Part shown: in pieces, positions 59,842 through 63,766 of the stretch
How positions within the stretch are numbered: position 1 is the stretch's first letter
Layout of the letters: each line of letters opens with the position of its first letter
Assembly (NCBI GenBank): GCA_963842375.1
Contig: CAWJGB010000013.1
Span: forward strand, 170,665 to 234,664
Source: an uncultured Solirubrobacterales bacterium
Lineage (GTDB): Bacteria; Actinomycetota; Thermoleophilia; Solirubrobacterales; 70-9
Direction of reading: 5' to 3'
Length of the DNA: 64,000 bases
The notes under the pieces: generated by a model
What the model was told of the DNA's origin: nothing
Database searches by the model: none
What the model saw: the letters and a program-made list of their open reading frames with translations, nothing else
Program-made: the position numbers and the translations under genes

Positions 59842-60056
59842 ATGTACTCCAGCATCACCGAGCAGCGAAGGAGCGCCCAGGTCCAGGCGCTCGCCGACCG
59901 GCTCTACGCCGAGCGCCGCGAGTACCTCTTGCACATCGCCCGGCGCAACGGCGCCAACGGTGAGGACGCCGAGGAGGCGCTTCAGGACTCCTTCGTTCTC
60001 TTCATCAATCATTTCGACCCTGAGAGCGATTCGCCACCGTTCGCCTGGCTCACCTT
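59842..60056 (+). pseudogene. ECF-like sigma-70 factor, 5' part (region 2), interrupted by the RIT element
   Basis: ATG 59842 with ggaggagg upstream. ...EDAEEALQDSFVLFINHFDPESDSPPFAWLT, then the element terminus follows. Confidence 0.8.
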
Positions 60057-60138
60057 TTATGCCGACCTCTGCGTTATGCCGACCTTGCCTCGCAAACCCG
60101 CCCCACAAGCGGAAATCGTGCCGATGAGGTCGGCATAA
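60057..60138. repeat. Left terminal inverted repeat with three copies of the 11-mer TTATGCCGACC (two direct, one inverted)
   Basis: Copies at 60057-60067, 60074-60084 and, inverted, 60128-60138. Confidence 0.9.
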
Positions 60139-60194
60139 TCCGCCGCTCCTGAAGACGCAGCGAAGCTCTTCCTCCCACAACAGAGGAGGAGTAG

Positions 60195-61415
60195 ATGTTC
60201 ATCGTCGATCCATCGCGGGTACGGGTGACCGGACCTCTGACGCCGTTCAAGGACGGCTTCGTCGCTGAGCTTCAGCGACAGGGCTACACCCCAAGCGGCG
60301 CGAGTCATCAGGTGCAACTGATGGCCCACCTGAGCCGCTGGCTGACTGGCGAGGGCGTGGATTGCCAGCGACTCTCGCCGACTGAAGCAGAGCGGTTCCT
60401 GCAAGCCCGCCGCGCCGCCGGCTATACCCACCATTTCTCAAGCAAGGGCCTGGCGCCGCTGCTCGCCTACCTGCGGGGGCTCGGAGCCGTGCCGGCTCCT
60501 CCGCCTGCTCGGGTGCCCGCAGGCCCGGTGGGGGAGCTGCTTGACCGCTACCGGCTCTACCTGATCCGCGAGCGCGGCTTCGGGGAGCAGACCGCACGAC
60601 GCTACGCGCGCATGGTCCGGCCCTTGCTCACCAACCTCGCCTCGACCGAGGGCCTGGACCTCTCCCAGCTCGGCAGCGCCGAGATCAGCGCCGCAGTGCT
60701 CGCCGCCTGCCGCCAGCTCTCCATCAGTGGGGCGCGGCTCACGGTCACTGCCACGCGCTCGCTGCTTGGCTTCCTGCACCACGAAGGCGAGATCGAGCGG
60801 CCGCTCTCGGGGGTCGTCCCTTCGATCGGGAGCTGGCGCGGGCAGAGCCTGCCGAAGGGCCTTGAGCCAGACGAGGTGCAAAAGCTCCTCGGTTCCTGCG
60901 ATCGCGCCACGGTGACCGGCCGGCGCGACTTCGCGGTCCTCACCCTGCTCAGCCGGCTCGGGCTGCGGGCCGGCGAGGTGGCCGGGCTTGCGCTCGCGGA
61001 CATCGACTGGCGCGCGGGAGAGATCCTCGTGCGCGGCAAGGGCCGGTGCGAGGAGCGCCTGCCGCTGCCCGCCGACGTCGGCGAGGCGATCGCCGCCTAC
61101 CTGCGAGCCGGGCGGCCGCCGAGCGTGGTGAGCCGGGCGGTCTTCGTCGCGAAGGCCGCCCCGCACCAAACGCTCAGCAACGCCGCGATCAGCAATATCG
61201 TCGCCGCGGCGGCGCGGCGAGCCGGGCTCGGCACCATCTTCGCCCACCGCTTGCGCCACACCGCCGCGACCGAGGCGCTTCGCGCCGGCGCATCTTTGCC
61301 TGAGGTCGGACAGCTGCTGCGCCACAACCGGATCGAGACGACGGCGATCTACGCCAAGGTCGACCGCGAGGGGCTGCGGGCCCTCGCCCGCCCCTGGCCG
61401 GCAGGTGCCCGATGA
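60195..61415 (+). CDS. Tyrosine recombinase, first of trio (RitA-like)
   Basis: 406 aa with C-terminal HRLRHTAATEALRAGASLPEVGQLLRHNRIETTAIYAKV. Confidence 0.88.
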   Translation: MFIVDPSRVRVTGPLTPFKDGFVAELQRQGYTPSGASHQVQLMAHLSRWLTGEGVDCQRLSPTEAERFLQARRAAGYTHHFSSKGLAPLLAYLRGLGAVPAPPPARVPAGPVGELLDRYRLYLIRERGFGEQTARRYARMVRPLLTNLASTEGLDLSQLGSAEISAAVLAACRQLSISGARLTVTATRSLLGFLHHEGEIERPLSGVVPSIGSWRGQSLPKGLEPDEVQKLLGSCDRATVTGRRDFAVLTLLSRLGLRAGEVAGLALADIDWRAGEILVRGKGRCEERLPLPADVGEAIAAYLRAGRPPSVVSRAVFVAKAAPHQTLSNAAISNIVAAAARRAGLGTIFAHRLRHTAATEALRAGASLPEVGQLLRHNRIETTAIYAKVDREGLRALARPWPAGAR

Positions 61416-62333
61416 GTCCGCTGCGATCGGCCCTTGCCGACTACCTGACCGTTCGCCGCGCCCTCGGCCACAAGCTGGTCAAGGTCGAGCCGCTGCTCGA
61501 GGCAGTTCGTGACCTACCTCGAGGAGCGCGGTGCGCAGACGATCAAGACTGAAGATGCGCTCGCCTGGGCGACGGCGCCAGGCGGGACCGGGGCCTGGCA
61601 CTACGTGCGGCTCTCGGCCGTGCGCGGCTTCGCCGCCTACCTGGAGGCGATCGACCCGGCCTGCGAGGTGCCGCCGAACCTCTTCTCGGCCCGGCTTCCC
61701 CGTGCCACCCCCTACATCTACTCCGAGCGCCAGCTCACCGAACTACTCGAGGCGACGGCGACCCTGAGCACGCCCCACCGGGCAGCGACCTACCGGACGC
61801 TGATCGCGCTGCTGGCGGTGAGCGGGATGCGGATCGGCGAGGCGATCCACCTCGACCGCAGCGACGTCGACTTCAAGGCGGAGCTGCTCCTGATCAGGGA
61901 CACGAAGTTCGGCAAGACCCGCGAGCTGCCGCCTCACCCCAGCACCGCGGCGGCGCTGCGTCGCTACCGGCACCGCGGTGATCGACCGCGACGCCGAGGC
62001 GGCAGCGATGCCTTCTTCGTCTCCATCAAAGGCTCCCGGCTGGACTACCGGTCGGTGCAGTGGGGGTTCAAACGGCTCCTGGGGGAGGCGGGAATCACGG
62101 CGCGCTCGGCCGAGTGCCGGCCGCGGCTCCACGACCTGCGCCACACCTTCGCGGTGGCAACGCTGCTTGGCGCCTACCGCGAGGGCGCCGACGTGGAGGG
62201 TCGCCTCGCGGCTCTCTCGACCTACCTCGGTCACATCGAGCCGGCCAACACATACTGGTACCTCTCGGCCGCTCCGGAGTTGATGGAGCTGGCCGCCCAG
62301 CGGCTTGAGCGCCACCTTGGAGAGGGCTCGTGA
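61412..62333 (+). pseudogene. Tyrosine recombinase, second of trio (RitB-like), apparent +1 frameshift near 61502
   Basis: ATG 61412 overlaps the first recombinase stop (atga). MSPLRSALADYLTVRRALGHKLVKVEPLLE is followed in the next frame by QFVTYLEERGAQTIKTEDALAWA...HDLRHTF...YWYL. The span is 922 nt, which is 3n+1. Confidence 0.8.
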
Positions 62334-63319
62334 GCGCCCTCGCGCCGACGCTTCAGGCGTTCTTCACCGAGCGCCTGATCGCCCAGCGCCAGGCCAGCCC
62401 CAACACGCTCGCCGCCTACCGCGACACGATGCGGCTGCTGCTGGGCTTCGCCGCGGAGCAGACCGCCAAGCAGCCGAGCAGCCTGGAGGTCGATGACCTC
62501 GACGCCCCGCTGATCGGCGCGTTCCTCGATCACCTCGAAGCTGAGCGGGGCAACGGGGTGCGCACTCGCAACGCCCGCCTGGCGGCGATCCGCTCGCTGT
62601 TTCGCTTCGCGGCGCTGCGCCACCCCGAGCACGCCCAGACGATCGAGCGGGTGCTGGCGATCCCGTCCAAGCGCTTCCAGCGAAACCTGGTCACGTTCCT
62701 GACCGAGGCGGAGATCGAGGCGCTCCTCGATGCCCCGGATCGCGGCACCTGGACGGGCCGGCGCGACCGGGCGATGCTGATGCTCGCCGCCCAGACGGGA
62801 CTGCGGGCGTCGGAGCTGACCGGACTCACCTGCGGTGACGTTCGGCTCGGTCGAGGTCCTCACGTCGACTGCATCGGCAAGGGTCGAAAGCAGCGGATCA
62901 CGCCGCTGACCAGCGCCACGGTCAGGGTGCTCGGGGTCTGGCTCGATGAGCGCGGCCGCCAGGAGGGCGATCCACTGTTTCCCACCCGCGTCGGCGGGCG
63001 GCTCAGCCGCGACGGGCTGGAGCGTCGGATCGCCACGCATGCGGCGAGCGCCGCCGTCGCCTGCCCGTCGCTGGCAGAGAAGAAGGTGACGGCACACGTG
63101 CTGCGCCACACCGCCGCGATGCGGCTGCTGCAAGCGGGCGTCGACACCTCGGTGATCGCGCTCTGGCTCGGCCACGAGCAGGTCGAGACCACCCAGATCT
63201 ACCTGCACGCCGACCTTGAGATCAAGGAACGAGCGCTGGCCAGGACCGCACCCACCGGCGCGAAGCCGGGTCGTTATCGACCACCGGACCAGCTTCTCGC
63301 CTTCCTCGAAGCGGTGTGA
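62330..63319 (+). CDS. Tyrosine recombinase, third of trio (RitC-like)
   Basis: The GTG start overlaps the previous stop (gtga). HVLRHTAAMRLLQAGVDTSVIALWLGHEQVETTQIYLHAD. Confidence 0.88.
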   Translation: MSALAPTLQAFFTERLIAQRQASPNTLAAYRDTMRLLLGFAAEQTAKQPSSLEVDDLDAPLIGAFLDHLEAERGNGVRTRNARLAAIRSLFRFAALRHPEHAQTIERVLAIPSKRFQRNLVTFLTEAEIEALLDAPDRGTWTGRRDRAMLMLAAQTGLRASELTGLTCGDVRLGRGPHVDCIGKGRKQRITPLTSATVRVLGVWLDERGRQEGDPLFPTRVGGRLSRDGLERRIATHAASAAVACPSLAEKKVTAHVLRHTAAMRLLQAGVDTSVIALWLGHEQVETTQIYLHADLEIKERALARTAPTGAKPGRYRPPDQLLAFLEAV

Positions 63320-63426
63320 TTATGCCGACCTCATCCGGCCGATCACCGCCTGCAGAGCGGAATAACGAGTCAGGTCGGCATAACGCAGAGGTCGGCATAA
63401 AGCGTCCTATGTCGACGTCGGCATAA
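63320..63426. repeat. Right terminal inverted repeat: one direct and two inverted 11-mer copies, plus one extra 10-of-11 inverted copy
   Basis: Copies at 63320-63330 (direct), 63373-63383 and 63390-63400 (inverted), and 63417-63426 (inverted, 10 of 11). Confidence 0.9.
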
Positions 63427-63438
63427 CACGCTGACCTT

Positions 63439-63766
63439 GAAGCGCCGCTCCTGGGCGCTTTACCGGCTTCAGCGGCGGGCCTGGCAGCGGCGCGCTAAGC
63501 GTGACGGCGATTACTGCTCAGACGCCGCCTTGCCTGGCGGCCCGAACCAACACCCCGACGATCTCCTCGACCTCGCTGAGGAGATCGCGGTGACCCGCAG
63601 CCACCTGGCCGCGTTGAAGCGGGACGAGCGACGGGCACTCTCACTGCTCGCCCTCGGCTACAGCTACAGCGAGATCTGCGAGCTGACCGAGTGGTCCTAC
63701 ACGAAGGTAAACCGCTGCCTCGCCGAGGGCCGCGCGGCTCTCCGGAGAGGCCAGCGTGCCGAGTGA
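63439..63766 (+). pseudogene. ECF-like sigma-70 factor, 3' part (region 4)
   Basis: ...LKRRSWALYRLQRR... LKRDERRALSLLALGYSYSEICELTEWSYTKVNRCLAEGRAAL is the region 4.2 HTH. Confidence 0.8.

Follow-up and report, generated by a model that had tools for sequence, protein, structure and literature searches.

A 64-kb stretch of DNA from an uncultured Solirubrobacterales bacterium (contig CAWJGB010000013.1; this whole stretch is hereafter designated the window, and coordinates are window positions) contains, at 59842–63766, a sigma factor gene split by three tandem tyrosine-recombinase genes, which raises the question of where exactly the inserted element ends and how it entered these particular codons. 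The first-pass annotation of this locus had described a recombinase-in-trio (RIT) element flanked by a 5-bp duplication of the target sequence ACCTT. We find that the element is a RIT element of 3370 bp, from the first half-site of a short repeated motif, TTATGCCGAC, at 60057 to the last, ending at 63426, and that the sequence repeated at its two junctions is 6 bp long. Taking our explanation as a whole, we consider it likely that the element integrated site-specifically into sigma codons 70–72 by tyrosine-recombinase exchange over a 6-bp crossover region, that the copy in the window is an old one, and that its sub-lineage (RitA identity of 80% or more) is specific for one target, the stretch of DNA that encodes AW-LT-LT-LK in members of a sigma paralogue family. 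Gene calls in the element, made with a listing of open reading frames (ORFs) and a Pfam search, and the analysis of its ends gave the following arrangement.

59842–60056, plus strand: 5′ part of the sigma gene (region 2; Pfam Sigma70_r2), including the left 6-mer; homologues are 64–79% identical over the full rejoined protein.
60051–60056, plus strand: left flanking 6-mer CACCTT, a copy of the crossover region in sigma codons (L)-T-L; the empty site of homologues has a single CACCCT.
60057–60140, plus strand: left inverted repeat (IRL), with half-sites TTATGCCGAC direct at 60057 and 60074 and inverted at 60129–60138.
60195–61415, plus strand: ritA, 406 aa, apparently intact; Pfam Phage_int_SAM_1 and Phage_integrase; best match, gene 1 of a trio on pHG1 of Cupriavidus necator.
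61412–62333, plus strand: ritB, frameshifted by one extra nucleotide, C at 61498; 306 aa once this base is removed.
62330–63319, plus strand: ritC, 329 aa, with the conserved C-terminal tail ...PGRYRPPDxLLAFLExx.
63318–63400, plus strand: right inverted repeat (IRR), with half-sites direct at 63320 and inverted at 63374–63383 and 63391–63400.
63401–63406, plus strand: inner 6-bp spacer AGCGTC, the reverse complement of which, GACGCT, differs from the sigma target 6-mer only synonymously.
63407–63426, no strand: terminal palindrome of 20 bp made of two facing half-sites, CTATGTCGAC and GTCGGCATAA, the first with 2 mismatches.
63427–63432, plus strand: right flanking 6-mer CACGCT, a 4/6 match to the left copy and encoding the same residues.
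63433–63766, plus strand: 3′ part of the sigma gene (region 4; Pfam Sigma70_r4_2); tblastn of the 182-aa reconstruction returns the pieces 59842–60057 and 63428–63763.

The exact junction was derived from homologues of the sigma factor, obtained by searching a protein collection with the 180-aa fusion protein proposed by the first-pass annotation. The closest full-length homologues (180–182 aa, 64–79% identical) are named as sigma-70 family proteins, and all of the 15 closest, aligned over the junction, have AW-LT-LT-LKRR, whereas the 180-aa fusion reads AW-LT-LKRR, one LT fewer. At the DNA level, homologues read TGG CTC ACC CTG ACC CTG AAG (TGGCTCACCCTGACCCTGAAG); the left flank in the window ends TGG CTC ACC TT, and the right flank, in frame from 63427, reads C ACG CTG ACC TTG AAG. 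This alignment of protein and DNA identifies the right-hand ACCTT as native sigma sequence, namely, the later of the two LT codon pairs that lie in tandem, and places the insert at 60057–63432 rather than between the previously proposed junction positions 60056 and 63439; a different junction in orthologous genes is what the first-pass annotation had itself named as the sign that ACCTT was coincidental. Indeed, deleting 60057–63432 (3376 bp) yields a protein of 182 aa colinear with the homologues, and deleting 60051–63426 yields the same 182-aa protein, so that either 6-mer may be kept. The earlier identification of an interrupted gene like those for extracytoplasmic function (ECF) sigma factors was borne out, with Sigma70_r2 on the left (23.4 bits on the fragment, cut-off 24), Sigma70_r4_2 on the right (27.2 bits) and the frame restored by removal of the element. 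The reconstruction scored 39.9 bits with TIGR02937 (cut-off 42.9) and consists, like ECF-type (group 4) sigma factors, of regions 2 and 4 only in about 180 aa.

The assignment to the RIT class follows from gene order, gene sizes, 4-bp gene overlaps, matches to pHG1 and the inverted ends. The three recombinase genes all match Pfam Phage_integrase and lie on one strand in the order A-B-C, and consecutive genes overlap by 4 bp of start and stop codon (ATGA at 61412–61415 and GTGA at 62330–62333), in accordance with the short overlaps (4–8 bp) described between consecutive RIT genes (PMC3414803). When the window proteins were compared with one pHG1 trio, the best matches were those at the same position (225, 203 and 381 bits), whereas off-diagonal matches reached at most 64 bits, as expected if each protein belongs to its own family; RitA, RitB and RitC are known to form separate subgroups (PMC8138268). 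Catalytic motifs are found in all three translations (RitA, HRLRHT...LLRH...IY; RitB, LHDLRHT...YLGH...YWY; RitC, HVLRHT...WLGH...IY). The AlphaFold2 model of RitA (mean predicted local distance difference test score, 76.6) has two four-helix bundles, residues 16–95 and 111–196, before the catalytic domain, and a weak Phage_int_SAM_1 match (E = 0.009) falls in this N-terminal part; the two predicted domains fit the two sequential core-binding domains published as diagnostic of RitA (PMC8138268). RitC has a tail of about 38 aa after the catalytic Tyr, with the motif PGRYRPPDxLLAFLExL in 11/11 loci including pHG1, and an extra conserved C-terminal helix has been described for RitC (PMC8138268). 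NCBIfam gave no RIT-specific model, only Xer-type models being matched, all under cut-off. Together with the inverted ends and palindrome described below, these features identify the window element as a RIT element, as the first-pass annotation had recognized. Its description of three intact recombinases of 406, about 306 and 329 aa holds for the tandem genes, overlaps and catalytic tails, but not for ritB, which as read consists of a 46-aa ORF and a 274-aa ORF in a different frame (from about 61500) and is thus out of frame upstream of its catalytic motifs. The extra C at 61498 is absent from three relatives in the alignment, and the 306 aa obtained on its removal is the length of their RitB.

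The ends of the element were compared across 80 related RIT loci. The inverted ends of the window element, given as about 82 bp in the first-pass annotation, extend over about 85 bp (60056–60140 versus 63318–63401), the outer 30 nt being 100% complementary and the next 55 nt 75%; the element, however, does not stop there, as it continues past IRR with the 6-bp spacer and the terminal palindrome. An 11-mer, TTATGCCGACC, occurs seven times in the window (one copy with one mismatch), all in the element ends, compared with 0.69 in shuffled sequences. Among the 80 loci, half-sites lie at fixed offsets, two direct and one inverted per end, with TTATGCCGAC as the consensus at all array positions, and the palindrome lies exactly 6 bp past one end, on the left and on the right in about equal numbers of loci. 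The module of spacer and palindrome beyond the inverted repeat is conserved in RITs of several phyla, and a pHG1 RIT has the identical layout, palindrome included, built on half-sites of another sequence. An alternative reading of the additional 30 bp on the right, as an unexplained flank or a hairpin, was abandoned when the comparison with other loci resolved it into a spacer and two half-sites. An inverted repeat with an overlapping palindrome, not fitting known models of recombinase binding sites, has been reported for RITs (Van Houdt et al., 2012; PMC3414803).

For 27 independent RIT loci, we then compared the 6-mer next to the repeat-only end with the 6-mer next to the palindrome, each taken on the outer side. 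The two were identical in 18 loci and matched at 5/6 positions in 2, at 4/6 in 5 (the window included) and at 2/6 in the remaining 2, whereas neighbouring 6-mers, compared in register as a control, never matched at more than 4/6. Removal of the element and one 6-mer reopens reading frames over the junction, and Pfam then matches the rejoined frames in one unbroken stretch each, to Transposase_mut, DDE_Tnp_IS66, DUF222 plus HNH, and rve_3 (three loci, L011, L014 and L018, were excluded from this test, the automatically picked ORFs being spurious high-GC frames). These results show that the 6-mer is target sequence and not element sequence. Moreover, in 16–17 of the 27 loci the inner spacer, read as its reverse complement, equals the flanking 6-mer exactly. 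The palindrome lies 3′ of the target gene in every locus with a clear target frame, and the trio itself is found in the two orientations at a ratio of 14:13; among otherwise identical carriers, the core occurs in both orientations in L028 versus L030, L008 versus L009, and L094 versus L095 (the last two from one assembly, ERZ25039546).

The closest relatives of the window element, with RitA 80–94% identical, interrupt the same sigma codons as the window in every case with readable flanks (L083, L084, L086 and L087), and in these four related sigma insertions the 6-bp repeats directly abut the half-sites. L086 and L087, both from assembly ERZ25039517, have elements 99.97% identical over 3357 bp, whereas their sigma flanks are only 68–71% identical and lie in opposite orientation; likewise, the elements of the window and L083 are about 96% identical and their flanks about 75%. 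The occurrence of near-identical elements in such diverged paralogues indicates that insertion is site-specific, and the sigma insertions are independent events in paralogous genes rather than one inherited insertion. More distant RITs lie outside sigma genes; a sub-lineage with RitA 66–76% identical has another gene family as its target, again with perfect 6-mers.

The two near-identical elements further differ in a manner that bears on how a RIT element carries its previous site. With ritA read in the same direction, their layouts are as follows.

L086: CACCCT - core - GTGGTC - palindrome - CACCCT
L087: GTGGTC - palindrome - CACCCT - core - GTCGTC

The inner spacer of each element is therefore of the type that flanks the other, as expected if a joined form, core - GTGGTC - palindrome - CACCCT - core, is opened at either 6-mer. 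In-situ inversion was also considered as the sole cause of the two core orientations and was rejected, since, with the left 6-mer and inner spacer heterologous at 3/6 positions, inversion alone leaves the spacer pattern of L086 and L087 unexplained. In the sigma frame, the three 6-mers are CACCTT (left), GACGCT (inner spacer, as its reverse complement) and CACGCT (right) in the window and GACGTT, GACCCT and GACCCT in L083; the differences are confined to positions 1, 4 and 5 and are all synonymous. In each sigma insertion, the three 6-mers are one site written with alternative codons. Such exclusively synonymous differences are not predicted by random decay of a broken gene, but are predicted if spacers were copied from other functional sigma sites.

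We propose the following layout for the integrated element, in which H denotes TTATGCCGAC, X the flanking 6-mer and I the inner spacer.

5′ sigma - X(6) - [H> H> ... ritA ritB ritC ... <H <H] - I(6) - [H> <H palindrome] - X(6) - 3′ sigma

According to this model, integration would proceed by strand exchange across a 6-bp overlap, in keeping with the usual chemistry of tyrosine recombinases, and not by a cut that duplicates 5 bp. Two inverted half-sites would flank the overlap, strands would be exchanged at its two ends, and the sequence of the overlap would dictate orientation. The 6-mer X, single in the uninterrupted gene, would be present once at each junction after integration, one copy being the target's own and the other brought from the element's site; the junction 6-mers could thus differ, because one of them would come from the previous site of the element. 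The integrated element would possess one split site, comprising the two junctions, and one intact inner site, comprising the IRR half-site, the spacer and a palindrome half-site. Using either of these adjacent core-type sites, or inverting between them, would keep the palindrome 3′ of the target, would leave the trio in either orientation and would store the 6-mer of the earlier site as the inner spacer. For elements of the L086/L087 type, the predicted joined junction (circle or tandem) is IRR-GTGGTC-TTATGCCGACGTCGGCATAA-CACCCT-IRL, and the predicted uninterrupted (excised) sigma site is GGCCTGGCTCACCCTGACCCTGAAGCGG. The circular intermediate, the resolution of a heteroduplex, the tolerance of mismatches in the overlap, the binding site of each protein and the separate roles of the three proteins are elements of the model that we infer from these arrangements. 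Extended to the class, the model may mean that RITs are site-specific, have a free form with two adjacent core-type sites sharing the palindrome, and comprise lineages specialized on conserved motifs of multi-copy genes (QRCxxH, and here AW-LT-LT-LK), a generalization that we advance tentatively and with less confidence than the account of the window.

The explanation that competes best concerns the unequal 6-mers of the window, which may once have been identical (CACCCT) and have diverged by post-insertion mutation only, with no donor spacer involved. The copy is old enough for a frameshift and a degenerate palindrome half-site, and each window 6-mer is one step from CACCCT; we nevertheless regard this as unlikely, though with an appreciable chance of being correct, since the differences in 6-mers and inner spacers of the window and L083 are all synonymous in an already broken gene, the inner spacer and right 6-mer of the window are of a GACGCT/CACGCT type common with the GACGTT of L083, and outright spacer exchange is seen in L086 and L087 at 99.97% element identity.

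A programmed arrangement, either precise excision that rebuilds the sigma gene, as with the skin element, or an invertible switch, appears improbable. It would account for the recurrence of insertion at one site of one sigma family, for the rebuilding of the same protein with either 6-mer and for the inversion of the relatives' core between otherwise identical flanks. The ritB frameshift in the window, however, and the 120-bp deletion at the ritB/ritC junction, group II intron and truncated ritA in L083 indicate decay and not maintenance; intact element-free paralogues exist; and most RITs lie in transposase genes, as would be expected of selfish elements aimed at conserved sequences present in many copies. 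The decay also bears on the age of the window copy: with its frameshifted ritB, a palindrome half-site with 2 mismatches and unequal 6-mers, it is probably old and non-autonomous, and L083, its nearest relative, is also decayed.

It is very improbable that the element reached the different sigma paralogues through their sigma flanks, by homologous recombination or gene conversion. All five insertions are at homologous positions of related genes, as such a process requires, but the identity between L086 and L087 falls from 99.97% to 68–71% exactly at the half-site, where conversion tracts would have brought flanking sigma sequence along; homologous recombination would be inefficient between flanks this diverged, the core occurs in both orientations relative to sigma, and the same 6-bp rule holds in the unrelated targets IS256, IS66, HNH and rve. 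Finally, the original reading of a 3382-bp element (60057–63438) with a 5-bp ACCTT duplication and a 180-aa sigma protein is scarcely credible, for although ACCTT is present at both 60052–60056 and 63434–63438 and the fusion is an open ORF of 543 nt, the fusion lacks two codons (LT) invariant in 15/15 homologues, CTG (63431–63433) just before the right ACCTT is in frame and colinear with homologue DNA, that ACCTT lies 7 bp beyond the last half-site, so that no identical duplication abuts both ends as after the staggered cut of a transposon, and none of the four related sigma insertions has its junction in this register.

Several observations weigh against site-specific integration over a 6-bp crossover as the history of this locus. 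The flanking 6-mers of L054 match at only 2/6 positions, which implies that strict homology is not required or that L054 has a more complex history, and hence that the 6-mer rule is not absolute; those of the window are only 4/6 identical, and heterologous crossover and post-insertion mutation are not separable there with certainty. No uninterrupted allele of the window's own sigma gene was found, its best homologue being 79% identical and not syntenic. The predicted empty site gave 0 matches in an exact-match scan of metagenome contigs with the two uncertain positions left free, and neither a circular junction nor an excised site was directly observed. There was no second copy of the window element either: no protein in a set of 5.8 billion was more than 94% identical to its RitA, and a scan for window-type left ends, as sister copies would have, gave 0 matches, so that its mobility is deduced from relatives. 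In addition, the ritB frameshift could be a sequencing error, and many of the loci are from metagenome-assembled genomes, where repeats may be misassembled; the layout is the same in the isolate genomes L026, L038, L056, L076 and pHG1.

Some copies depart from the common pattern of ends. The central dinucleotide of the terminal palindrome flips from CA to TG between otherwise identical copies (L028 versus L029 and L030; L008 versus L009), independently of trio orientation. The palindrome is present at both ends in some contigs (L092:990–4410, L071 and L068), the flanks of L092 being inverted copies of each other, which could represent a real rearrangement or an assembly collapse of both orientations. 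It is missing from L015, L025, L072 and L077; after the right end of L025 and L072, which come from different phyla, there is a common motif, T(C/T)GGGGTATCCAT(T/C)TAACCGGAG, possibly the end of an insertion sequence (IS), which may hint at RIT-mediated deletions or rearrangements. The group II intron of L083 (RVT_1, GIIM and RVT_N) lies just after ritC, at L083:7700–10180.

RitA relatives number more than 500 in species-representative genomes and thousands in the protein collection. Many of the matches are on contigs of 3.3–3.9 kb, about the length of the element (e.g., L013, L020, L025, L042, L043, L057, L065, L067 and L070), as expected where a multi-copy repeat breaks short-read assemblies. 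RitA matches seven places on C. necator pHG1, which is RIT-rich and has been named, together with a plasmid of Aromatoleum EbN1, for complex RIT combinations (PMC3414803). On plasmid 2 of the latter (L096, 19000–28000), recombinase gene fragments lie on either side of a complete trio, RITs being nested inside recombinase genes, and in L090:121–5577, a second left end lies inside ritB of the first element (RITs nested or fused). Most RITs with RitA 50–62% identical are located in transposase genes of the IS256/Mutator type at the QRCxxH motif, the 6-mer corresponding to the x-x-H codons (L028–L030 of Ca. Foliamicus OZ250178, L005, L053 and about 15 others), and further targets are IS66, DUF222-HNH and rve_3 genes. 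It appears that RITs parasitize other genes that are themselves selfish and multi-copy.

The truncated sigma ORF runs 27 codons into IRL to a stop at 60136–60138, so that a region-2-only product of 98 aa (59842–60138) is possible. In the window, the neighbours of the sigma gene are housekeeping genes. The sigma family elsewhere has several copies per genome in non-syntenic, accessory-looking contexts (flanks of L001, L002, L084, L086 and L087; proteins P0001/P0049, P0002/P0037 and P0017/P0018), with toxin-antitoxin, restriction-modification, IS110 transposase, TrwB-like and SLT genes as neighbours.

Among recombinase-bearing elements in general, the coupling sequences of Tn916 and CTnDOT and lambda-type att overlaps involve a staggered crossover of 6–7 bp, in which heterology gives one donor and one target junction, and identical overlaps give a short direct repeat flanking the element. 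These systems employ one integrase with accessory factors and arm-type sites, in contrast to the three recombinases and eight copies of one half-site in the window element. A recombinase-bearing element also splits a sigma or developmental gene in the case of skin in Bacillus subtilis sigK and the nifD and fdxN elements of Anabaena, whose precise excision rebuilds the ORF; skin, however, has a serine recombinase and is a prophage remnant, whereas the window copy is decaying and gives no sign of regulated excision. In the fim switch and shufflon-like inversions, as in RITs, inverted recombinase sites enclose a segment that occurs either way round within identical flanks, but the flipping RIT segment encodes recombinases only, with no promoter or coding switch evident. 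Tn554, SE and GInt resemble RITs in the joint use of several tyrosine recombinases and in site-specific insertion, and the 6-bp donor-location sequence that they carry to the new site (PMC10214605) resembles the stored 6-mers of the window and its relatives. Tn554-like elements are defined by TnpA, TnpB and a non-recombinase TnpC without long inverted ends, whereas the window element has no fourth ORF and no TnpC, Srap or Tfp-type fourth protein, and RITs have long inverted ends (about 85 bp here), a palindrome module and a core in both orientations. The closest known systems are the RITs of Cupriavidus metallidurans CH34 and C. necator pHG1 (Van Houdt 2009, 2012; Ricker 2013), which agree with the window element in ritA-ritB-ritC order, sizes, 4-bp overlaps, homology by position, a total of about 3.4 kb, and terminal inverted repeats with an overlapping palindrome (PMC3414803; also seen in pHG1). 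The window element differs in its half-site, which is not that of pHG1, in its target, a sigma family instead of transposase genes, and in its frameshifted ritB.

The element class has been known since 2009 and occurs in many phyla, and the window provides a further RIT with mechanistic value. No RIT transposition has so far been reproduced, and the table of a 2023 review (PMC10214605) enters target specificity, the empty site and how the elements move as untested; the mechanism has been described as yet to be deduced (PMC5737581). Our literature search found no account of the 6-bp repeat, the palindrome position or the targeting of IS256, but its coverage did not extend to the main descriptive paper (Ricker et al. 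2013), where some of these regularities may already be reported. The present locus and its relatives supply exact ends, a 6-bp crossover register, an array of eight half-sites, a recurrent target and predicted junctions of the excised form, which are the data that the design of a transposition assay requires, and the open mechanistic question thereby becomes directly testable.

For the bacterium itself, the consequence would be modest: in practice, by inactivating the sigma gene, a decaying element would have cost it one sigma paralogue. For the family, the recurrent targets suggest a possible ecological role, in which RITs inactivate a conserved motif of the transposase genes of other transposons or, here, a family of regulators. 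If the model is true, precise excision from the AW-LT-LT-LK motif would rebuild the sigma gene, and this widespread class of elements would have, in the two-site model, its first mechanism and target rule that are concrete and open to testing.

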